This document shows positions 12,006 to 52,110 of a DNA stretch of 64,000 nt, piece by piece. Made by a program: the position numbers and the translations under genes. Below the pieces are notes generated by a model. It had not been told where the DNA came from. It saw only the letters and a list, made by a program, of their open reading frames with translations, and ran no database searches. Source of the DNA: Candidatus Poribacteria bacterium (GTDB lineage Bacteria > Poribacteria > WGA-4E > WGA-3G); contig OZ244048.1 of the NCBI GenBank assembly GCA_965215265.1, positions 4,769,178-4,833,177 on the forward strand, given 5' to 3'. The number at the start of each line of letters is the position of its first letter. The first letter of the stretch is position 1.

Positions 12006-13222
12006 TTGAAAATCGCGTATTTTGACTGCTTCTCAGGCATCAGCGGCGATATGATACTGGGGGCACTCGTTGATATAGGTGTCGCACCCGAAGTGCTCAT
12101 ATCCGAATTGGCAAAACTTAAATTGGATGCGGAATTTAGCTTGCACTTTGAAAAGGCAACGAAACACGGCATTTCCGGAACCCGGGCTGTTGTTAAAGTT
12201 CCGGACGCGCACACATCACACACCCCAGGGCACCACCACGGCCCCAGTCGTCACCTCGCGGACATTTTCAAACTGCTTGACCAGAGCGGGCTTAACGCAG
12301 ACATCCGCGATGGTGCAAAACGTGTTTTCGACCGGCTCGCGGAAGCAGAAGCGAAAGTACACAATACCACCAAAACTAACGTTCACCTCCACGAAGTGAG
12401 CGGCATCGATTCAATTGTTGACATCGTTGGAGCAGTCATCGGGTTATCACACCTTGACGTTGATACGCTCTATGCCTCGCCTCTCTCCCTTGGACGTGGC
12501 TTTGTCCAATGTGCACATGGACTCATGCCGGTCCCCGCCCCAGGAACTATGGAACTCTTGAAAGGTGTCCCTATTCACCAGACGGACATCCCTAAAGAAT
12601 TGGTGACACCGACAGGTGCCGCACTCATCACAACGTTCGCTAACGGATTTGGGACAATGCCACAGATGACGCTGACGCAGGTAGGCTACGGCGCAGGAAC
12701 GCGAGATTTAAAACAACGTCCTAACCTGCTGCGCATCTGCCTCGGAGAAAAAAAAAAGGATTAAATGAAGAGACTGACCAGGTCGACATCATTGAAACCA
12801 ATCTGGATGATATGTCGCCAGAAATCACCGGATATGTGATGCAGAAACTCTTTGAGAACGGTGCACTAGAGGTCTTCCTCACACCGATTTTCATGAAGAA
12901 GGGGAGACCTGCTACGAAGATAACCGTGCTCTGTCATGCCGACCGGCGCGAGATGCTGATTGAACTCCTTCTCACTGAGACAACAACCTTTGGGGTTCGC
13001 TGTACTTCCATGGCCCGCGTCAAATTGCACAGGCAGTTTACCCAACTTGAGACACCGTGGGGAAACATCCAAGCCAAGTGCGGGTATTTCAACGGCACAC
13101 TCATCAAAACAGTCCCGGAGTATGACGACTGTAAACGCGTCGCGGAAGAGAACAATATCCCGATTCGAGACGTTTATGCAGAGGCACTCCGCGCACTACA
13201 TAAATCGCATGTGCCACACTGA
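12006..13222 (+). CDS. larC: Nickel-pincer cofactor biosynthesis protein LarC, two frames joined by a -1 shift at A10G (12748-12758)
   Basis: YFDCFSGISGDMILGALVD, His-rich linker, HLHEV, ELVTPTGAA, GYGAG in frame 1; IETNLDDMSPE, MKKGRP, ETTTFGVR, PEYDDC in the -1 frame; TTG start at 12006. Confidence 0.88.
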
Positions 13223-35982: not shown

Positions 35983-36084
35983 AAATTTTCCGCACCTCTA
36001 TGTCTTGCTCGCAAGCGCGAAGGAGGCAGTTCCTGCATTGAGATAGCAGGGGCATAAATAGGAACGAGGGATAGAAACGGAATT

Positions 36085-36864
36085 GTGAGACTAGAGAAAT
36101 ATATTGCTACATCAGGCGTTGCTTCGCGGCGGGCAGTAAAGAGAGCGATTCTTGCTGGACGCGTCACTGTCAACGGTGCACGAGTATTGATTCCCGGGCA
36201 TCCGATTAACGTAGCGACGGATAGGGTTGAATTTGACAGTAAGAAGGTTGAACCGGTAAAACAGCGGTTCTATGTGATGCTGCATAAACCTGCTGGCTAT
36301 TTAACGACGCGGCGGGATGAGCGAAACCGCCCCACTGTCATGGAATTGGTTCGGGATATTTCTGAAAGCATTTATCCGGTCGGCCGTTTGGATTTGGAGA
36401 CGGAGGGGCTGCTGCTGTTGACAAACGACGGTACGTTTGCCTATAGGCTTACACATCCAAGCCACGAAATTCCAAAAACGTATCTTGCCTGGGTAGGTGG
36501 CATTCCAAATGATGCAGCAGTTGAGCGTTTGCGTAAAGGTGTCACGATTCCGAGTGGGAAAACCGCACCTGCGAAAATTAGACGTATCAGCGAAAAAGAT
36601 TTTGACGAGACGTGGAAAAAAACAGACATGCCAAACCGTGCTAACCGAATGAGTAGAAAAAGAAAATCTGCACTCCCTGTGACACGGTTTAAGGTGGTTA
36701 TTCACGAAGGGCAAAAACGGCAAGTACGTTTGATGTTTAAGACAGTGGGACACACTGTTATCCGCTTAAAGCGGATTCAAGTTGGTGAGGTGAGGTTAGG
36801 CAATCTGCCGCCGGGGCAATATAGATTTTTAACCCCGGCGGAAATTGCAAATTTGTACGCCTAA
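36085..36864 (+). CDS. rRNA pseudouridine synthase (RluB/RsuA family)
   Basis: S4 domain MRLEKYIA..GVASRR; YPVGRLDLETEGLLLLTNDG; EGQKRQVRLM. Confidence 0.92.
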   Translation: MRLEKYIATSGVASRRAVKRAILAGRVTVNGARVLIPGHPINVATDRVEFDSKKVEPVKQRFYVMLHKPAGYLTTRRDERNRPTVMELVRDISESIYPVGRLDLETEGLLLLTNDGTFAYRLTHPSHEIPKTYLAWVGGIPNDAAVERLRKGVTIPSGKTAPAKIRRISEKDFDETWKKTDMPNRANRMSRKRKSALPVTRFKVVIHEGQKRQVRLMFKTVGHTVIRLKRIQVGEVRLGNLPPGQYRFLTPAEIANLYA

Positions 36865-37766
36865 TCGGCGGATTTCGCTAAGTTTTTCACGTGTGCGAGG
36901 GTTGATTGAGCTTGTTGTTTTACAGCCTCATTTGTCGTGTGGTGCACTAACTTTTCAAGGACCTCGATCGCTTCCGTATATTGTCCTTTGATAGCGTACG
37001 TCGTACCGAGGTAATATTGGGCGTTCTCATAAACATCGCTTTCTGGGTAGGTGTCGATAACAGCCCGAAAGTGCTTGACAACCTTTTGAAAATTTTCCTC
37101 TACAACCTCTGCAGGTTTACCTTCCATCTGTGCACCGTAGTATAGTCCGGTTTCAGTGTGGAGTTGTGGCAGTAAGCCTGTGCGATTTTTCGCGTCAAGT
37201 TCAAACACTTTCTCGCTGATGGGGATAGCTTTTTCAGCCAGTTTCCGCTTGAAGTATGTGAGTGCAATCTCACCGTTCAGTTTCGCATCTTCCGGTGTCT
37301 TCTTTAGTTGCTCCTGTTTTTGTTTGAAGACCTTCTCTGTTTCGAGAGCCGCTTCCATCACCGGTATGAATTGCTCAGGGAGAGTGTATCCGACTTGGGA
37401 GACAACACCGCCCTCCGCGCTCAGGAATAGAATCGCGGGGATACTTGTAATCCGGTACCTTTGGGCAGCTTCCTGATTCTCCGGGTGTTCTTCGTCGTCT
37501 ATATCTACTTTAACAGGAACGAACTTTTCCGCGAAGGCAATGACTTTAGCATTAGCAAATGTCTCAGCATCCAGCTGAGAGCATGAGCTTCACCAGTCTG
37601 CGTAGAAGTCCATCATTACCAGTTTGCCGCTTTCCGCTGCGGTTTTCATACCTTTTTCAATTGACTTCTCCCACTGAATTGCCGCGCTCGCTCTGTGTAC
37701 GGGAATTGTGACTACCGTCAGTAAAAGCGCTGCAGCTGCCAGACTAGGAAAAACAGATTTAAACAT
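36861..37766 (-). CDS. Secreted thioredoxin-fold plus TPR selenoprotein (UxxC; in-frame TGA at 37590-37592), 301 aa
   Basis: Signal peptide; MDFYADW-TGA-SSC continues in frame through FVPVKVD...YRITSIPAILFL into the TPR ORF; SECIS-like hairpin. Confidence 0.85.
37554..37589 (-). promoter_or_regulatory. Bacterial SECIS-like hairpin immediately 3' of the UGA
   Basis: AGC-UC-AUG-C-UCUCAGC-[UGGAU]-GCUGAGA-CAU-UU-GCU; loop 16 nt from UGA with G at loop position 2. Confidence 0.7.
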
Positions 37767-37785
37767 TTTTTTCTCCTTGTTGAGA

Positions 37786-37971
37786 TTAATTTTCATTTGA
37801 TTGTTCCGCAACTGATGCGCTGGTTGTTTTACTTGACAGCGTTGTGCGGCACTGAAGGCAGGTAATAACCGTTCTAACTAAGGCTTTCTGTTTACCAAGA
37901 GGTGACTGCTTCTGTTCTGTTTCTACATAACGTTTACAGCGCATGCACCACTGTTGTCTTGTTACTAACAC
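37786..37971 (-). CDS. Small zinc-ribbon protein (61 aa)
   Basis: CMRC...CLQC; strong AAGGAGG RBS before GTG. Confidence 0.7.
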   Translation of the reverse strand: MLVTRQQWCMRCKRYVETEQKQSPLGKQKALVRTVITCLQCRTTLSSKTTSASVAEQSNEN

Positions 37972-38087
37972 GGTTTCCTCCTTTGCGTGCGAGTTTCCGG
38001 ATTCGTACTCAGAGCTGCTGACTTGACGTGAGAATCAGATATCCCTCTTCGTCAAGGAGTGTTTACCCAAGCAACCAGGCAAAAACG

Positions 38088-38154
38088 TCCCAGTGGGTGG
38101 CAGGTAAAAGATTATCTTGTCTCATGGACAGAGAAAGATACCTATCCTGCCACT
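38088..38154 (+). repeat. 67-bp structured dispersed repeat, copy 2
   Basis: Matches 35916-35982. Confidence 0.9.
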
Positions 38155-38308
38155 CTGGCGAAATAGGTATCCGAAATTTCATTCTCATAGAGCCTTATCG
38201 CTTGCATCAATGAAAAACCTCAGAAACCGCTATTTGTTAAACACACTATATGTGAATAAAAGTTGCAAAGGGCAACTTTCCCTATAAGTTTGTTCAGATG
38301 AATTCTGG

Positions 38309-39697
38309 TCATTTTCCGATACAGAATTGTGAGAAAATCCGGTCTAAGATATCCTCAGTTGTCGTTTTTCCGACGATGTCCCCGAGGGCATCAAGGCTAA
38401 TGTGCAAGTCGACAGCAACGAATTCAGGTGGCATCGCGTTTATTAAACTGTCTATTGCGTGGTTAAGTGCATCTTGGGCGCGCCGGAGTGCCTCTTGGTG
38501 TCGTGCATTCGTCACAATCAGCGATTCGTCGGCGATGTCAGTTTCTCCATCAAGCAGTTCCTCACGGATAGCCGCTTTCAGTTTGTCTACGCCTTTTCCA
38601 TCAGGAATCGCTGTTTGAACTACCCGTCGTTTGGGACAGTAAGCGTGCAAGGCCTCCGGAGTTGTGACGATAGGTAAATCTACTTTATTCAAAATCAAGA
38701 GAGTCGGCTGCGAATTACCTATTTGTAAAAGCTCTATATCTTCATCATTTAAGGGCTGCGATGCATCAAACATTAAAAGTAAGAATTCTGCTTTATTGAG
38801 TACCTCTCTACTTCGTTGAACGCCTTGCTGTTCAACAATATCTTCGGTTTTTCGGATACCGGCAGTGTCAATGAGGTTCATAGGTATGCCGCTCAGGTTA
38901 ATAGTTTCCTCAACGGTGTCGCGGGTGGTACCGGGGATGTCGGTAACAATCGCCCGTGATGTTTCAACGAGCGCGTTGAGAAGCGTTGATTTTCCGACAT
39001 TCGGTTTACCGAGTATGGCGACGGTGGTACCTTCGTTGATGAGCCTGCCTTCTGCTGCTGTCTCTAACAGTTGTGTTAAGTCTGTTCGAAGAATTTCGGC
39101 AGTTTGGAGCTGCGTCTCAACCCTCATGAAATCTAACTCCTCCTCCGGGAAGTCTATAGAGGCTTCAATTTCTGCGAGTAAGGCTGCTGTTTTATCGCTG
39201 AGACGATTGACAGTTTCCGAGAGTTTACCAGTAAGCGTATTGAGTGCAATTTTCAGGCTGCGTTCGGTTTTGGCTCCAATGAGTTCTGCAACGGCTTCAG
39301 CTTGTGCGAGGTCAAGGCGTCCGTTGAGAAAAGCGCGTTTAGTAAATTCGCCAGGTTCTGCCGGTCGCGCGCCTGCCTTAACCACCGCTTCCAGGACCGC
39401 TGTAAGTGGTACCGTTCCCCCGTGACAGTTAAATTCGACGATATCTTCGGCGGTGTATGTTTTCGGGGCCCGCATAATACCGAGTAGTACTTCATCAATG
39501 CGTTCGCCGGAGCCTGTATCTATGACATGCCCATAGGTGAGGGTATGTGTAGGGAGTCCAGATGGACAAACGCCGTGTGGTGCATGAAACAACTGAGATG
39601 CAATATGAATTGCTAGTGAACCGCTGACTCGAACTATGCCGATGCCGCCTTTCCCTTGTGGTGTTGCGATGGCAGCGATGGTATCCCGGAATTCCAT
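38309..39697 (-). CDS. mnmE: tRNA modification GTPase MnmE
   Basis: DTIAAIATP, GEFTKRAFLNGRLDL, GKPNVGKS, DTAGIR, IFSQFCIGK. Confidence 0.97.
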   Translation of the reverse strand: MEFRDTIAAIATPQGKGGIGIVRVSGSLAIHIASQLFHAPHGVCPSGLPTHTLTYGHVIDTGSGERIDEVLLGIMRAPKTYTAEDIVEFNCHGGTVPLTAVLEAVVKAGARPAEPGEFTKRAFLNGRLDLAQAEAVAELIGAKTERSLKIALNTLTGKLSETVNRLSDKTAALLAEIEASIDFPEEELDFMRVETQLQTAEILRTDLTQLLETAAEGRLINEGTTVAILGKPNVGKSTLLNALVETSRAIVTDIPGTTRDTVEETINLSGIPMNLIDTAGIRKTEDIVEQQGVQRSREVLNKAEFLLLMFDASQPLNDEDIELLQIGNSQPTLLILNKVDLPIVTTPEALHAYCPKRRVVQTAIPDGKGVDKLKAAIREELLDGETDIADESLIVTNARHQEALRRAQDALNHAIDSLINAMPPEFVAVDLHISLDALGDIVGKTTTEDILDRIFSQFCIGK

Positions 39698-39725
39698 AAC
39701 TTTGCCTCAGGCCTCAGGGTTAACA

Positions 39726-40382
39726 CTAAGGAGCTTCTGTTGTGATTACAACACGCCGCATTTCGCCTTCGCCCTGGCTATATGTGGAGACAACGTCATC
39801 CGCTTTTAAAGCGAGGTGAATAATGCGCCGGTCCCGGGGCGACATTGGGGCAAGGATAACTTCGCGATGTGTTTGTCTCACTCTCGCTGCTTCCCGATGT
39901 GCTAGCTCAAGAAGTGACTGTTCTCGTCTTTCTCGGTAGCCCTCGGTATCAATAAAAACGCGTCTTTTCACCAGCACAGATCTATTAATCATACAGTTGA
40001 GCAAACGTTCTATAGCATCAAGTGTCTGGCCATGTTTCCCGATAAGCAGCGCAGGCATGTCCGTAATCATATTGAGGTGCGTGCTGCCGTCAATCAAGTC
40101 CGATTGAACTTCAGCTTCAATCCCCATCCGGTTCAGGATTTCCTTTAAGATCGTATCCGGTGCATCTGCATTCGTGTCTATGGACTCTTCTTCTTGGCAT
40201 GTGACTCGAACTTTTGCGGGTTTTGCCCCGAATTTCAAAATTCCCTTTGTCGGTTCACTTAGGATAGTAATTGTAACCTCTTCACGTTCTAGCCCAAGTT
40301 CAGCGAGGGCACTTTCAATTGCTGCCTCCACCGTACTGCCTTCGGTTTCAATATAGTTTGGCACAGTGAGGTTCTCCTTCAT
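39726..40382 (-). CDS. jag: Jag/KhpB (EloR) RNA-binding protein
   Basis: Jag_N, KH (LLIGKHGQTL), R3H (RDRRIIH); position between yidC and mnmE. Confidence 0.93.
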   Translation of the reverse strand: MKENLTVPNYIETEGSTVEAAIESALAELGLEREEVTITILSEPTKGILKFGAKPAKVRVTCQEEESIDTNADAPDTILKEILNRMGIEAEVQSDLIDGSTHLNMITDMPALLIGKHGQTLDAIERLLNCMINRSVLVKRRVFIDTEGYRERREQSLLELAHREAARVRQTHREVILAPMSPRDRRIIHLALKADDVVSTYSQGEGEMRRVVITTEAP

Positions 40383-40395
40383 TGATGCGCTGTTG

Positions 40396-40431
40396 TGGTA
40401 GGAGCTGGAACAGGTCCTTTCTTACCTACCA
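40396..40431. repeat. GTAGG...CCTAC palindrome (REP-like)
   Basis: TGGTAGG...CCTACCA between yidC and jag. Confidence 0.45.
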
Positions 40432-40514
40432 TATCCCTACCTTCAGTTATTTGTCACAATTAGGATGCACTAGCAGTCTCTGACAAACCTTATCGCTTCA
40501 ATCCACAAAAAATG

Positions 40515-42341
40515 TTAGCTCCGTTTACGTTTTGAACTATTCGATTTCTTGTTAGTTGCGACTACCAATTCTTCATCATCGGTGTCGGAATACCGCGTTT
40601 GTAAGTATTGTTGCATCACCGTGAAAACATTGTTGCATAACCAGTATAACACAAATCCAGAAGCCCAGTTATAAAAAATGAAGACGAAGATCAGGGGCAT
40701 AAACTGCATCAATTTTGTCTGGATTCCTTCGGTTGTAGGAGTGGGTGTCATGCCACCGACAAATTTCTGTTGCAGCCACGTTGTGAGTCCATTTAGTAGA
40801 GGGAGGAACCGGATAGCATCGATCTGTGTAAATATGAGTGGGATTGTAAACGGGAGTTCTACCAAAGTATCTGGTGCAGATAGGTCGTCAATCCATAAGA
40901 AAAATGGTGTGCCGCGCAATTCGACTGCACTTCCCAGGAGCGCGAAGAGTGCCCAAAAAATTGGCAGTTGTGGCAGCCATGGAATGCAGCCGCCCAATGG
41001 ATTAACTCCGTTATCTTTATAGAGGCGCATCGTGGCCCGGTTCAATTTTTGCGGATCGTCCCGATATTTCTCCTTGAGTTCTGCAAGTGCGGGTTGAAGT
41101 TTCTGCATCTTCTTCATAGATGCATGTGCCTTGCGGGTGAATGGATAGGAAAGCACCTTCACCAGTGCGGTTAGGAGGATAATTGCGATGCCGTAATTCT
41201 GAAAAACAGCATGCAATCCTTTGAATATCCAGAGCATTCCCCAGGCGACCGGCCCGAAGAACCCGAAGTCAATAATTTTAGAAAGCCGGATCGGCTCTTC
41301 CGGTGCATTTGGGGCCTCTATCTGTTTGAGGAGCGTATTGTTCTTTGGTCCGACATAGAGGCGAAACTCGTGGGTCTGGCGTTGATTAGAGGCGAGCTGG
41401 AACCGCGGTATCACCAGTACTGCTGTCTCTGTTTGTGCGGCAGTTTCTATATTTTCGCGCTTGTCGTTTTTAGAGACATCTAACTGATAGATTGCTTCCA
41501 ATTCGGGGTCCGGAATCATGATTGCACTAAAGTACTGGCTATCAATCCCTGCCCAGAGGACTGTCTCTGACGCTTTTTCAACTTTCAGTTCACGCGTTGG
41601 CTTTCCTTCACCGAGGTAGGCTTTCGCGCCTTCGCTGCCGCGCCTGCCACGCTTTCCGCTCTTTTTCTCATGTGGAAGCAGATCAGCATTGATACCAGCG
41701 CCCCAGCGGAGTTGGTAGCCGTTTGCAGGTTCAGTTCCACCGATAAGGAGTGGTTCAGTGGAGACGTTTTGGAACGTTAACGCTAAGTCTACGTAATATT
41801 TATCCGCATAGAAGGTTATAGTTTTGGCAACATTTAGCTTTTCCGCGATTGTGGCTGTTAAGGTAAGCGTTTCGGATGCTGGCGTGTTTTCGATATTTAT
41901 TTCGGATTTATCGGCTTTCCATGTAGCGCGGAGTGCGTCGAGTTGAATTTGCGGGTTCTCAAAACGCAAGGCGAGGCAGTTAAGTGCGTTCTCCGGAATC
42001 AGATTTAATGGTGCAGCCGCTGTATCGGTGCGGTCAACGAAGTCTGTTAATTCCCAAGTTTTTGCGATTGCTAATTTTTCGTTAAAGATGATACGGTAAT
42101 TATCAGTCTGGATATGCACCTTTGCATCATCGGGGCTCTCCTGAACCGGCGTAAAAAGACCCGGAGTGAGCGGTGTCTCGGTGTTCTCACTCAGTGATGT
42201 TTCACTTGGTACAGGTGGCGGGGTTGTCTCGGAAGTTGCGGGTTCCTCTTGTTGTGGAACAAAACGATTGCCGTAAAACAGGCTCCAGGCAATCATAACG
42301 CCAACCATTAGAACCAGCGCAAGAATATAACGTGATCCCAT
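40515..42341 (-). CDS. yidC: Membrane protein insertase YidC
   Basis: YVGPK, NYGIAIILLT, GVNPLGGCIP, LWIDDLSAPD, LYWLCNN. Confidence 0.96.
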   Translation of the reverse strand: MGSRYILALVLMVGVMIAWSLFYGNRFVPQQEEPATSETTPPPVPSETSLSENTETPLTPGLFTPVQESPDDAKVHIQTDNYRIIFNEKLAIAKTWELTDFVDRTDTAAAPLNLIPENALNCLALRFENPQIQLDALRATWKADKSEINIENTPASETLTLTATIAEKLNVAKTITFYADKYYVDLALTFQNVSTEPLLIGGTEPANGYQLRWGAGINADLLPHEKKSGKRGRRGSEGAKAYLGEGKPTRELKVEKASETVLWAGIDSQYFSAIMIPDPELEAIYQLDVSKNDKRENIETAAQTETAVLVIPRFQLASNQRQTHEFRLYVGPKNNTLLKQIEAPNAPEEPIRLSKIIDFGFFGPVAWGMLWIFKGLHAVFQNYGIAIILLTALVKVLSYPFTRKAHASMKKMQKLQPALAELKEKYRDDPQKLNRATMRLYKDNGVNPLGGCIPWLPQLPIFWALFALLGSAVELRGTPFFLWIDDLSAPDTLVELPFTIPLIFTQIDAIRFLPLLNGLTTWLQQKFVGGMTPTPTTEGIQTKLMQFMPLIFVFIFYNWASGFVLYWLCNNVFTVMQQYLQTRYSDTDDEELVVATNKKSNSSKRKRS

Positions 42342-42361
42342 TGAAATTAGGTGCTCCTCTT

Positions 42362-42565
42362 CTATTTAAGCGGATCAAAACCACCCGGATGGTACGGGTG
42401 GCATTTCGAAAGTCTTTTAAGGGTGAGCCAACCGCCTTTACAAGTTCCGTAGCGTTCTAGTGCCTCCAAGGCGTACTGTGAACATGTAGGATAAAATCTG
42501 CACGATTGCGGCAGTAGTGGTGAAATCAAACGGCGATAAAAGCGAATGGCATATTGGAGAATCAT
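42362..42565 (-). CDS. yidD: Membrane protein insertion efficiency factor
   Basis: [19 protein letters not shown]...[11 protein letters not shown]. Confidence 0.96.
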
Positions 42566-42696
42566 AATTGCGGTTATATCTTCAAAACGCTAGAAAACTC
42601 TTACGAGCTCTTCATAGGGATGTCATTCAGTTAGTCGAATATCACAAAAGTGGCGAGATAGGTATTTTTTGTCTGTCCATGAGACAAGATTACTTT

Positions 42697-43080
42697 TTAC
42701 TCGCCACCCACTGGGTGTTGATTAAAAATGGTGGCTTTACAAAGGAGACTTTGCAATCTGCTTTGTGCCTGTTGACACGTGAGGTGGCGAGCGGCGGCTC
42801 TGCCTACAACCACAATATCAATTTCCGTTTGAATTTTGGGGCGTAAGGCACGAAACGCTTCCCGTATCAATCTTTTGAGGCGGTTCCTTTGGACACTGTT
42901 TCCGATTTTTTTGCTCACGGTGATCCCCACGCGTGCATTATGGTATGATTTGTCCGAATACGTCGCGAGCACGTATATAACAAAGTAGGAATTCCAATAC
43001 TTCCTGCCTTGTTGGTAGGCACGTTGAAATTCCCAGCGCTTTTTCAGGCTATCGGGATGGATTTTGTGCTGCATGCTCAT
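42697..43080 (-). CDS. rnpA: Ribonuclease P protein component
   Basis: RVGITVSKKIGNSVQRNRLKRLIREAFR. Confidence 0.95.
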   Translation of the reverse strand: MSMQHKIHPDSLKKRWEFQRAYQQGRKYWNSYFVIYVLATYSDKSYHNARVGITVSKKIGNSVQRNRLKRLIREAFRALRPKIQTEIDIVVVGRAAARHLTCQQAQSRLQSLLCKATIFNQHPVGGE

Positions 43081-43103: not shown

Positions 43104-43649
43104 TTACGCCGAATAATCATGGTTAAGGTACAGATATTTGTGCCATGATGAATGGTAACCGCGGCAATTATAACCACTGCCCCGGTTGAGTTGCAAATAA
43201 GTCAAAATTGAAGGCGTTTTAGGAGGACGTGTTAATTGCATCCCAGCCTGATGTAGCATCTGATTCCCTTTTTTGTTATTACACTTTTTACATGCTGTCA
43301 CCACGTTTTCCCATGTTGTTGTCCCTCCCCGAGAGAGCGGTATAACATGATCCAAGGTTAGCAGGGCTGTCGGAGATTCTTGCTGACAATATTGGCAACG
43401 ATACCGGTCCCGGACAAGTACATTTTTGCGCGAAAATTTGACAACACTACGTGGAACATGAACGTAGTGTACCAACCGAATGACATGCGGTACGGGCATG
43501 GCGGTACTGGGTGAATGAATCTCGGCTGTGGATGCTTCTTCTGTCTGCGCAGTTCCTTTGAAAACCATCTTCAACGCACGTCTCAGATTACAAATGTTGA
43601 TGGCTTCATAGCTAGCGTTAAGGACCAAGACAGACGTTTCCATTGACAT
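43104..43649 (-). CDS. HNH endonuclease (McrA/HNH_5-like)
   Basis: VLVLNASYE, SRKNVLVRDRYRCQYC, TLDHVIPLSRGG, WENVVTACKKCNNKKG. Confidence 0.92.
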   Translation of the reverse strand: MSMETSVLVLNASYEAINICNLRRALKMVFKGTAQTEEASTAEIHSPSTAMPVPHVIRLVHYVHVPRSVVKFSRKNVLVRDRYRCQYCQQESPTALLTLDHVIPLSRGGTTTWENVVTACKKCNNKKGNQMLHQAGMQLTRPPKTPSILTYLQLNRGSGYNCRGYHSSWHKYLYLNHDYSA

Positions 43650-45586: not shown

Positions 45587-46237
45587 ATGCAACAGGATTT
45601 AGTATCGATTATGTCGCTTGCAGTTTTTCTGGCAATGTTTCTTCTGCACGATGCTTTACCGGCTGAAGAGATTCGCGTCTGGGGCGGCAAGATTGAGGAT
45701 TTTAAAGATTCCGACGGTCGGACCTGGCACGGTGGACAGAATGAAAAAAAAGAATGGGGCGGCTGGATCGAGAAGCTACCACGCACGGCAGAGGTTCAGC
45801 AACTCACTAAAGATGCTGAGAAACTTGCTAAGCAGGAAGGGTACGATAAAGAACTCTTTTATGCAGTAAGTTGGGCCCAATTTCCGGATACCGTTAAAAT
45901 GGATTTGAATACCGGAAAAGGTACCTTTAACGTGACATATCTCGTCGGGGAGCACTGGTCTCCGAACAACCGTGGTTTTGATATTATTATAGAAGATGAG
46001 GTTGTCGAGGAAGAGTATGTGACCCCCGGCAACCACGAAATCGATATTAAGCGTTACGAAGGCATTGAAGTCAAAGACAAGGTGATGAGCCTTGAATTTG
46101 CTGGGAATCCAAAGACCGGCGCAGGCGACCTCAATGCTATGTTTAGTGGGATCGAGGTAATACCAGCATTAGCCGTGGACCCAAAACTGAAACTCACTAC
46201 GACGTGGGGCGCACTTAAAGCGAAACGGCAAAACTAA
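45587..46237 (+). CDS. Secreted malectin-like protein with C-terminal KLTTTWGxLK motif
   Basis: Signal peptide; GTFNVTYLVGEHW...RGFDIIIE; ends AVDPKLKLTTTWGALK. Confidence 0.65.
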   Translation: MQQDLVSIMSLAVFLAMFLLHDALPAEEIRVWGGKIEDFKDSDGRTWHGGQNEKKEWGGWIEKLPRTAEVQQLTKDAEKLAKQEGYDKELFYAVSWAQFPDTVKMDLNTGKGTFNVTYLVGEHWSPNNRGFDIIIEDEVVEEEYVTPGNHEIDIKRYEGIEVKDKVMSLEFAGNPKTGAGDLNAMFSGIEVIPALAVDPKLKLTTTWGALKAKRQN

Positions 46238-46253
46238 TATAACGGAGGGATAT

Positions 46254-46901
46254 ATGAAATCTCTTAGCATTTTAGCGTTAATAATCTTTCTTGCAATTCT
46301 CATCGGGCCGGTTTTATTCGCTGCGGAAGAATTCCGGGTTAAGGGCGGCACGGCTGATGATTTTACCGATTCGCAAGGACGCGTCTGGAACGGAGCGCAG
46401 CAGAGCGACCAGGCTTGGGGTGGATGGATAGAAAAAGAACCCCGTACCGCAGAAGTCACGACGTTGACAGCAGACGCACAAGCACAAGCTGAAGCAGCAG
46501 GATACGATGTTGAGCTCTTTTACGCAGTCAGTTGGGCACAGTTTCCAGACACAGTTAAGTATCAGTTTAAGACCGGTAATGGTGTTTTTGACGTAACCTA
46601 TCTCGTCGGCGAACACTGGTCTCCGAATAATCGCGGCTATGATATTATTATTGAAGATGAAAATGTTGAGCCGCTGTACGTAACCCCTGGCAAAGATGAA
46701 ATTGATATCAAAACCTACGAAACCATCGAGGTTACCGATGGGGCACTTGATTTTCATTTCGCAGGGAACGCCGAGACTGGCGCAGGCGACCTAAATGCAA
46801 TGTTCAGTGCGTTAGAAGTTGTTCCTGCAGTTAGTACTGCTGTAGATGCACAGGCGAAACTGACGACAACCTGGGGCACGCTGAAAGTCCAACGTCAATA
46901 A
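46254..46901 (+). CDS. Tandem paralog of the preceding malectin-like protein
   Basis: Shared ELFYAVSWAQFPDTVK, VTYLVGEHWSPNNRG, TGAGDLNAMFS; ends AVDAQAKLTTTWGTLK. Confidence 0.65.
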   Translation: MKSLSILALIIFLAILIGPVLFAAEEFRVKGGTADDFTDSQGRVWNGAQQSDQAWGGWIEKEPRTAEVTTLTADAQAQAEAAGYDVELFYAVSWAQFPDTVKYQFKTGNGVFDVTYLVGEHWSPNNRGYDIIIEDENVEPLYVTPGKDEIDIKTYETIEVTDGALDFHFAGNAETGAGDLNAMFSALEVVPAVSTAVDAQAKLTTTWGTLKVQRQ

Positions 46902-50733: not shown

Positions 50734-52110
50734 TTGCGCAATATCATCCTTATCTCCTTAGATACGCTACGTGCATCCAGCATGAGTTGTTACGGGCATA
50801 GTGACCTGACAACACCTCATCTGGATGCATTGGCAGCAAAATCAACGCTCTTTGAAAACTGTATCAGTCCGCATATTCCTACACATCCTGCGCATACAAC
50901 GATGTTCACTGGAAAAGATGTGTTGACGCATCAAATCATCACACAAGGCGGGCAGCTTGATTTGGCAACGACAGTGAAAACGGTGCCGGAATTGCTGAGC
51001 GAAGTAGGATATTTCACCGTGGCGGCGGATAATTTAGGGCGTTGGTTTCAGCGCGGTTTTTCAGAGGGACACTATCGCGGATATCAGTGGGAGAGTCGTT
51101 ACCGCAGCACACGTAAGGCGGAAGCGGTTAACGATACGGCGATTGAACTTTTAGAAATTGCGCAAGCCCAAGATAAACCGTGGTTCGCGTTCTTGCACTA
51201 TTGGGATGCGCATACGCCATATTTGCCGCCGCCGCCGTTTGAGAGAATGTTTTATAGCGGGGATGAGTGCGATGCGGACAATCGGAGTATGGATGCAGTG
51301 TACGCATGCGAACCGTTCACTGACTATTTCCGGCAGTGGATGTGCAAACCAGACCCGATTGATTCGGACAACCTCGCTAAAAAGAAACTGTGGACAGATA
51401 GACGGTACGTCAACGCACAGTACCATGCCTCCATTGCGTACATGGATGCATGTCTCGCGCAACTCTTTCAATACCTCCGCGATTGTGGGCAGCTGGAAGA
51501 GACGCTTCTCATCATTACTGCAGACCACGGTGAAGAATTGGATGAGCATGAACTCTGGTACGACCATCACGGACTCTACCAAACTAACTGCCACGTGCCC
51601 TTAATTGTTCATTGTCCAGCTTTGATTCCTGCAGGACAACGGCTAGACGGCTTGGTCAGCCTTAAGGATATTGCCCCCACGGTTTTGGATTATGCGAGCC
51701 ACGCTGCACTCACTGAACACGAGAATATAGAAGGCTCAAGTCTACGGACATTAATGGAGCACGGTAGCCACAATGGCACAACAGAAGCGATTTACCTCAC
51801 TGAATGCGGATGGATGAAAAAGCGAGGATGGCAGACGAAGCAGTGGAAGCTGATTGTTGAAACAGGCAGTACACCGGCTGTTTATAATACACCAGAGCTA
51901 GAACTCTACGATCTGGAAGATGATCCAGACGAAGTCTACAATCTGGCTGAAGAAGCAGACGATGTTGTGAAGCGGTTACGGGATGATATGGACGTTTTCC
52001 TGCAAAACCGGCTCGCTGAGACCGGGCTGCCCGATCCGATGGTAGAGCAGGACATTACCATGCGGCGAATCGGCGATAAAACAAAAGCCGTTCCTCTTAA
52101 GGAGAATTAG
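50734..52110 (+). CDS. Sulfatase / alkaline phosphatase superfamily hydrolase
   Basis: NIILISLDTLRA, TPHLDALA, PTHPAHTTMFTG, HYWDAHTPY, TADHGE, ELYDLEDDPDE. Confidence 0.88.
   Translation: MRNIILISLDTLRASSMSCYGHSDLTTPHLDALAAKSTLFENCISPHIPTHPAHTTMFTGKDVLTHQIITQGGQLDLATTVKTVPELLSEVGYFTVAADNLGRWFQRGFSEGHYRGYQWESRYRSTRKAEAVNDTAIELLEIAQAQDKPWFAFLHYWDAHTPYLPPPPFERMFYSGDECDADNRSMDAVYACEPFTDYFRQWMCKPDPIDSDNLAKKKLWTDRRYVNAQYHASIAYMDACLAQLFQYLRDCGQLEETLLIITADHGEELDEHELWYDHHGLYQTNCHVPLIVHCPALIPAGQRLDGLVSLKDIAPTVLDYASHAALTEHENIEGSSLRTLMEHGSHNGTTEAIYLTECGWMKKRGWQTKQWKLIVETGSTPAVYNTPELELYDLEDDPDEVYNLAEEADDVVKRLRDDMDVFLQNRLAETGLPDPMVEQDITMRRIGDKTKAVPLKEN

Follow-up and report, generated by a model that had tools for sequence, protein, structure and literature searches.

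We analyzed a 64,000-nucleotide stretch of DNA (the window) from a Candidatus Poribacteria bacterium (NCBI GenBank assembly GCA_965215265.1, contig OZ244048.1, positions 4,769,178 to 4,833,177 of the forward strand) and found on its minus strand a gene for a thioredoxin-like protein in which an in-frame UGA codon is, to judge from the sequence comparisons below, almost certainly recoded as selenocysteine (Sec). On the same grounds, the gene appears intact and kept across the Poribacteria genomes fetched. Poribacteria are marine, largely sponge-dwelling bacteria. The observations as a whole are very likely best explained by an exported Sec-dependent disulfide reductase or isomerase recoded at UGA.

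Read from 37766 to 36861 on the minus strand, the gene comprises 302 codons with a terminal TAG and a single internal stop, a TGA at codon 59 in the context DFYADW*SSC; the plus strand across the same interval is full of stops. A mechanical open reading frame (ORF) caller cuts the gene into two ORFs (37590-37811 and 36861-37361), and 76 codons, including FVPVKVD and YRITSIPAILFL, lie between the TGA and the GTG of the second ORF. An earlier note on this DNA had joined the two ORFs into one frame interrupted once, by a TGA in place of the first Cys of a CxxC motif, and had located FVPVKVD and YRITSIPAILFL within the 76 codons after the TGA; translation of the window bears out both statements. 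The interval that it gave for the gene was correct, but the strand was left unstated.

Conservation of the in-frame TGA

A genome scan confirmed 105 stretches, and the counts reported here rest on the best 80 of the 105. These 80 loci (77 with Poribacteria and 3 with "uncultured bacterium" in the title) make up 81 sequences together with the window. Their identity to the query is 37 to 69%, the highest value being that of L001 (complete chromosome OY730443.1), which has gene order in common with the window. The aligned codon is TGA, followed by xxC, in 80/80 loci, and never TAA, TAG, TGC, or TGT. Upstream of the TGA, the open frame extends over at least 62 codons in all 80 loci; downstream, it extends over 232 to 279 codons in 80 of the 81 rows, the last row meeting a contig end. 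The longest downstream frames (274 to 279 codons versus 232 to 245 in the others) belong to L062, L072, L076, L078, and L079, which have extra tetratricopeptide repeats (TPRs).

A nonsense mutation, a sequencing error, or a pseudogene would look much the same in one window alone, particularly as no Sec genes lie in the window, and the earlier note had named a genome without Sec machinery, together with TGC or TGT in reads or in all close homologs, as the finding that would point to such damage. The close loci do not have these codons: TGA is present in 80/80 independent genomes, the frames are intact on both sides, and the selenocysteine insertion sequence (SECIS) hairpin described below covaries. 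Conservation of the TGA thus refutes the explanation by a broken gene, to which we assign a negligible probability.

The alternation between TGA and Cys that the earlier note proposed to look for in homologs is found at larger distances. A profile search of 1.84 billion representatives gave, among the best 150 matches listed, 148 that were new; 58 of the 148 are at most 340 amino acids (aa) long and have both domains covered, and these distant proteins of the same architecture carry CxxC in 58/58 cases (57 by pattern, P0133 read directly). A quick IQ-TREE phylogeny was built from 60 rows (20 of the 81 Sec sequences, 30 of the 58 Cys proteins, 7 truncated records, and 3 others; midpoint root, no bootstrap); in it, the Sec rows, the 7 truncated records, and 2 paralogs form one branch among the Cys forms (SH-like approximate likelihood ratio test [SH-aLRT], 95). 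The tree fits, short of proof, a single Cys-to-Sec change near the base of Poribacteria. The two paralogs inside the Sec branch, seen in protein records, are longer and have Cys (P0032, WCDTC) or Ser (P0034, WSRWC); they suggest a possible loss of Sec after duplication. Few Sec-to-Cys changes are reported in the sections of PMC1794560 that were covered.

A search of protein records returned 27 matches, 25 from the close family and two others, P0022 (triple thioredoxin [Trx]) and P0028 (distant, Ignavibacteria, WCVWC). Among the 25 close matches, 21 begin after the TGA and 4 read W-W-x-x-C; 0/25 are full length with C or U, so that the earlier claim that standard annotation misses this protein holds for the collection searched. 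The 4 W-W-x-x-C records, which come from contigs of 1.1 to 1.6 kb, probably reflect TGA translated as Trp. Such records would be expected if UGA were reassigned genome-wide to Trp or Gly (tables 4 and 25), the product then being a WWxxC protein; however, on contigs of this size the code would easily be mis-chosen, and UGA serves as an ordinary stop elsewhere. TGA terminates 8 of 39 chosen Pfam-supported window genes, including mnmE, and 131 of 505 long ORFs across the loci. Orthologous neighbors switch among TAA, TAG, and TGA stops (37/3/32 for mnmE), and in L044 and L078 the selenoprotein gene itself ends in TGA where its relatives use TAA. This stop usage rules out tables 4 and 25, and reassignment is accordingly given next to no weight.

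SECIS hairpin and selenocysteine machinery

Downstream of the UGA, the window RNA can form a hairpin whose 7-bp stem is extendable by AUG/CAU and AGC/GCU and whose UGGAU loop begins at a distance of 16 nt from the UGA. The earlier note had described this hairpin, and it is present as described, but only part of it is conserved over the 81 sequences: the core is, and the extra stem pairs are not. The 4-bp core CRGC/GCYG is paired in 78, 81, 81, and 81 of the 81 sequences, and the lower pairs +7/+30 and +8/+29 hold in 75/81 and 81/81, respectively; the AGC/GCU extension is mostly unconserved (11, 78, and 17 of 81). A folding energy of -17.0 kcal/mol (z, -3.64; 0/200 shuffles as stable) was obtained for the first 40 nt past the UGA, and longer folds were not significant (z values of -1.90, -0.58, -0.37, and -1.53 for 53, 73, 100, and 141 nt, respectively). 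A free energy of -7.5 kcal/mol is reached by 76/81 sequences.

Covariation is concentrated at pair +14/+24, which is G-C in 69/81 and A-U in 12/81 sequences with zero mismatches. On the 5' side, the switch replaces Arg (CGG) by Gln (CAG), and on the 3' side it is silent (Ala, GCC/GCT); the SECIS covariation is unusually clear, an amino acid change being offset by a silent one. The pair takes 4 changes on a FastTree tree, all concordant, and is the only fully Watson-Crick pair among 17,027 variable column pairs within 40 nt in the gene. Over 61 degenerate columns, codon choice is most constrained at Leu65 (CTG in 81/81) and Arg64 (CGG in 69/69). RNAalifold recovered three core pairs from 46 of the 81 sequences, and the named six-pair structure is paired in 97.4% of cells versus 12.6 to 64.4% for slid controls. 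As judged from these alignments, the SECIS is under selection. Because the covariation is so clear, a compact Poribacteria SECIS model could be used to search for the remaining selenoproteome.

The published bSECIS model, as given in the portion of PMC13188914 that was covered, has a loop of 3 to 9 nt, a stem of 4 to 16 bp, a G in the first two loop positions, a spacing of 16 to 37 nt, and a minimum free energy of -7.5 or below. The window hairpin lies within these constraints, with its 5-nt UGGAU loop, 7 bp, 16 nt, and -17.0. The UGA-SECIS motif did not recur in any second gene of the window or of the 1.54 Mb of loci, and Rfam at gathering scores had 0 matches in the window. The sole other read-through candidate from a generic scan of the window, at 51470 on the minus strand, was rejected since it is antisense to a sulfatase gene.

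Sec machinery has been recorded for Poribacteria. In the six Poribacteria rows of Table S1 of PMC5029168, WGA-3G and WGA-4E are SelD+ SelA+ SelB+, WGA-A3 has SelA alone, and three further rows have none. WGA-3G corresponds to locus L016, which carries the selenoprotein gene with its TGA. The rows lacking Sel genes presumably stand for partial single-cell genomes. Table S2 of the same paper counts 15 known selenoproteins in WGA-3G and 5 in WGA-4E (PMC5029168), and the gene described here may be among the 15. A supplement row of PMC13582414 lists SelA, SelB, SelD, and two tRNA-Sec for another Poribacteria metagenome-assembled genome.

A SECIS-dependent UGA could also be decoded as Cys by a tRNA of the tRNA-ReC (SelC*) type. 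Such tRNAs decode UGA as Cys ahead of a SECIS, according to the part of PMC13582414 covered, and the sequence signals would look alike; but SelA and SelD are published for the Poribacteria genomes on record (PMC5029168, tables cited above), and the single Poribacteria row in the PMC13582414 table has two tRNA-Sec and no ReC, which is reported there in other phyla. Decoding as Cys is therefore very improbable. Together, TGA in 80/80 loci, a covarying SECIS core, the Cys homologs, and published Sec machinery in a carrier genome strongly support recoding as Sec.

Export, fold, and proposed mechanism

The N terminus of the window protein has a hydrophobic stretch at residues 12 to 21 (mean hydropathy, 2.65), no lipobox, and an A-S-A that precedes the mature start. 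These features agree with the Sec-type (general secretory pathway) signal peptide predicted earlier, and a similar hydrophobic stretch was scored heuristically, from sequence features, in 76/79 family N termini, versus 3/79 for a Tat-like motif and 0/79 for a lipobox. Tat and lipoprotein export were rejected on these counts, there being no conserved twin-arginine motif. Export of the selenoprotein thus appears highly probable. A heptosyltransferase gene is present in the window and fits a two-membrane envelope.

The read-through protein scored above the Pfam cutoffs for Thioredoxin_7, Thioredoxin_2, Thioredoxin, and Thioredox_DsbH at about residues 26 to 157 and had TPR matches near residues 224 to 282. 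PF13098 gave 55.1 bits against a gathering score of 27, and PF13899 scored equally (55.0). Thirteen NCBIfam families matched the window protein, all below cutoff, with similar best E values over 46 members. AlphaFold2 modeling of the mature chain with 46 sequences (predicted local distance difference test [pLDDT], 96.1; predicted template modeling score [pTM], 0.89) gave a Trx fold followed by a long linker helix and then six TPR-like helices. The best structural matches of the Trx domain were DsbH (Z, 17.2; root mean square deviation [rmsd], 1.7; 113 aligned), a Bacteroides exported cytochrome c biogenesis-related domain (Z, 16.9), and DsbD-gamma (Z, 16.1), and the tail matched TPR domains such as that of YbgF (2xev; Z, 12.6; rmsd, 1.7; 121 residues). 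Among solved proteins, a Bacteroides putative disulfide isomerase and DsbD-gamma are the closest in sequence.

The Trx domain contains Asp53, Sec59, Cys62, and cis-Pro110. Asp53, six residues ahead of Sec, is invariant (81/81) and aligns with the buried Asp of thioredoxins and DsbD-gamma. The cis-Pro loop reads G/A-Y/F-P in 74/81 sequences and S-I-P in the window; the residue before the cis-Pro is Tyr, Phe, or Ile in 80/81, Val in 1/81, and never Thr. The mature part has no other Cys in 80/81. The Trp before Sec is replaced by Thr or Ser in 10/81 sequences (L004, L005, L006, L007, L009, L014, L015, L025, L031, and L038), which may alter client preference.

According to the mechanism that we propose, SelB with Sec-tRNA would bind the hairpin that lies 16 nt past the UGA, inserting Sec at codon 59; without recoding, a 58-aa stub would result. 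The cleavable signal peptide predicted from the sequence would route the finished selenoprotein via SecYEG into the periplasm. There, the Sec59 selenolate would attack a client disulfide or an oxidized cysteine, as expected from the fold and from established thioredoxin chemistry, and Cys62 would resolve the mixed bond to a selenenylsulfide, which a putative membrane carrier of the DsbD/CcdA/ScsB type would re-reduce. The TPR helices may select or hold client proteins. The DsbH/DsbD-gamma fold, Asp53, the cis-Pro loop, the N termini, and the heptosyltransferase gene all argue for such a periplasmic Sec-dependent disulfide reductase or isomerase with client-selecting TPRs, and the earlier proposal of an exported redox protein is sound as an inference from sequence and fold. 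The reducing or isomerizing direction is probable and is favored over that of a DsbA-type oxidase.

The periplasm is oxidizing, and the X2 position is aromatic in 61/81 sequences, as might suit a Sec enzyme acting as a DsbA-like oxidase or a peroxide scavenger. However, the model lacks the helical insertion of DsbA, it resembles DsbH and DsbD-gamma most closely, the buried Asp never varies, and the residue before the cis-Pro, which in DsbA is typically Val or Thr (PMC5193440, section covered), is as given above. We regard an oxidase or a scavenger as quite improbable.

Several features recall CnoX (YbbN), a chaperedoxin of similar length. It has the same order of Trx and then TPR (PMC8129009, part covered), YbbN is among the top Foldseek matches, and the gene comes after the yidC cluster in 77/80 loci. 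The protein, with Sec in place, could then be mainly a periplasmic CnoX-like chaperedoxin, combining holdase activity with cysteine protection, for YidC/SecYEG clients. Yet superposition on the whole YbbN chain is poor (TM score, 0.30, with an rmsd of 21.6; VIA Z, 12.7, with an rmsd of 14.4 over 190 residues), and the domains match separately. CnoX passes its clients to cytoplasmic GroEL/DnaK, as described in the same part of PMC8129009, whereas the Poribacteria protein has a signal peptide-like start, a DsbH-type Trx domain, and Sec; two genes separate yidC from the small ORF that precedes the selenoprotein gene, and the cluster is a housekeeping one. Identity with CnoX was rejected on the signal peptide-like start (76/79, heuristic) versus the cytoplasmic location of CnoX; the domain arrangement appears to differ as well. 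A mainly chaperedoxin function is unlikely, and chaperone activity as such, suggested by likeness to CnoX, is doubtful.

Several points weigh against an exported Sec-dependent reductase or isomerase. The longer stem of the hairpin is private to the window, its three extra pairs being formed in 1, 7, and 34 of 81 sequences, the minimum-energy fold includes the core hairpin in just 42/81 sequences, and the window loop misfits the pattern of "mostly" paired N1-N2 given in the covered portion of PMC13188914. None of selA, selB, selC, and selD was seen within the window (48 ORFs scanned), and ARAGORN found 0 tRNAs in the window and 0 in 80/80 loci. The 25 of the 105 stretches outside the best 80 may include Cys forms. 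The SS dipeptide of the window is unique among the 81 sequences, the majority having GF or GW, so that redox tuning in the window protein may differ from that of the majority. No electron donor or client was identified, and the neighborhood is of a housekeeping type that gives no functional clue.

Known relatives and genomic neighborhood

The closest established relatives belong to the Sec-containing "thiol:disulfide interchange protein" family (PF13098, UxxC), with which the Poribacteria protein has in common the domain and a single Sec at the first CxxC position. Compared by eye, the representative WP_011366075.1 (Table S1 of deep-Sep, PMC12013277) has a similar W..LDF..UxxC opening and C-terminal helical segment but is shorter, starts at the Trx domain without a signal peptide, and lacks the middle TPR helices. 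A member from candidate division LCP-89 (Data S1 of deep-Sep, PMC12013277), also compared by eye, has a signal peptide-like start, USSC, and a long helical tail. Because this member is printed there, the known family already includes exported Trx-UxxC proteins with helical repeats, and the homology searches of published surveys would probably catch the Poribacteria gene. There is no mention of Poribacteria or of TPR in the parts of the deep-Sep supplements covered (PMC12013277), and none of TPR, tetratricopeptide, or Poribacteria in the main text of PMC13188914. A term search of BSepDB (PMC13326102) gave nothing in the main text or in the supplement, where the negative is weak and applies to part of Table S1; a term search of the Secmarker supplements (PMC5330540), within the parts covered, gave nothing. 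The BSepDB website or NCBI records may already list the gene.

Chlamydial DsbH (PDB 2ju5; NF043050) and DsbD-gamma are the closest structures of the Trx domain. DsbH is periplasmic and has been suggested to keep the periplasm reducing (PMC5193440, section covered). The Poribacteria protein, which adds TPR helices and Sec, scores below the NCBIfam cutoffs for DsbH (NF043050, 40 versus 190) and DsbD (NF001419, 65 versus 330). It also has a DsbD-like/Trx_7 domain in common with the selenoproteins TsoB (NF045694) and Trx7/PDZ (NF041199), but these are other fusions with UxxxxU and CxxU as Sec motifs, and the scores are 82 versus 805 and 21 versus 300, respectively. Widespread, uncharacterized proteins made up of a signal peptide, Trx_7, and TPR have the same architecture and length with Cys instead of Sec; identity to one of them, P0118, is 27% over 267 residues. 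Atlas look-alikes of the homolog P0028 come from Bacteroidota, Acidobacteriota, Planctomycetota, and others.

The protein would act in the manner of DsbH and has a CnoX-like build, and it qualifies as neither; it represents no new kind of recoding and no new fold. The result corrects a gene cut in two in database protein records across a phylum of sponge symbionts. A selenoprotein family that counted 3 members in the 2006 survey (PMC1794560, part covered) also gains a large and clean clade. If the function is as proposed, selenium-dependent disulfide repair would take place outside the cytoplasm. It is rather unlikely that this Sec form, apparently fixed phylum-wide, stands far enough from the short, signal-less "thiol:disulfide interchange" selenoproteins to constitute a family of its own, namely, a selenium-dependent periplasmic chaperedoxin that is coexpressed with the yidC cluster, repairs or holds new exports, and has paralogs that reverted to Cys or Ser in rare losses of Sec.

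The features of the gene and its surroundings are collected in Table 1.

Table 1. Features of the selenoprotein gene and its upstream neighborhood
Feature	Position	Strand	Basis
Whole gene, 301 aa with TGA read as Sec: signal peptide, thioredoxin UxxC, and TPR helices	36861..37766	minus	
In-frame TGA (U59), first position of UxxC	37590..37592	minus	TGA in 80/80 loci; Cys in 58/58 distant same-architecture proteins
Bacterial SECIS hairpin, +1 to +36 after UGA	37554..37589	minus	Fold, conservation, covariation
Conserved SECIS core CRGC-UGGAY-GCYG	+13 to +25; loop 37573-37569	minus	
Predicted Sec-pathway (SPase I) signal peptide, residues 1-28	37683..37766	minus	Sequence features, family counts; cleavage after A-S-A inferred
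Thioredoxin-fold domain, DsbH/DsbD-gamma-like, about residues 29-142	37341..37682	minus	Pfam, model
C-terminal TPR helical domain, about residues 158-301, last hairpins YbgF/CpoB-like	36864..37295	minus	Pfam, model, structure match
19-nt spacer with Shine-Dalgarno AAGGAG ahead of ATG	37767..37785	minus	
Small upstream gene, 61 aa, two CxxC motifs (zinc-ribbon-like), no signal peptide	37786..37971	minus	
Upstream housekeeping cluster rnpA-yidD-yidC-jag-mnmE	38309..43080	minus	Pfam

Almost every one of 16 upstream regions compared has the AAGGAG motif. A promoter and terminator scan of 36000-38400 found 1 and 2, respectively, versus 2.6 and 2.6 expected, which is not above chance. The 61-aa CxxC gene lies 19 nt upstream of the selenoprotein gene, with which it is probably cotranscribed. 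It occurs in 70/80 loci and is absent from the L062/L072/L076/L078/L079 branch; in the 10 loci without it, a profile found just a weak remnant (L011). It has 37 homologs, the named ones being Poribacteria hypothetical proteins except for one, and no Pfam match above cutoff, and no TGA read-through form occurs among the 71 compared. Further upstream, mnmE is on the same strand in 77/80 loci, 296 to 2,039 nt away, and the other 3 loci hold less than 520 nt of upstream DNA. The downstream neighbor is usually a convergent pseudouridine synthase gene, whose stop codon in the window overlaps that of the selenoprotein gene (36861-36864). No redox or selenium genes were recognized among the neighbors in common with the window, to which annotation of the clusters was confined.

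Three other regions of the window deserve mention. An HNH-domain gene (43104-43649, minus strand) lies directly upstream of rnpA, a position usually held by rpmH, and is kept in 72/81 loci. A LarC-type nickel insertion gene (PF01969; 11763-13222, plus strand) is in two frames, with a run of 10 A at about 12748-12757 just before the stop of the first part and the second part in another frame. The break may be a programmed frameshift, as is known for larC, or, alternatively, a homopolymer error. Finally, two related genes lie in tandem at 45587-46901 on the plus strand; each encodes about 215 aa, starts with a signal-like sequence, and lacks a Pfam match, and the first closes with a short tail that we take to be typical of exported proteins of Poribacteria.

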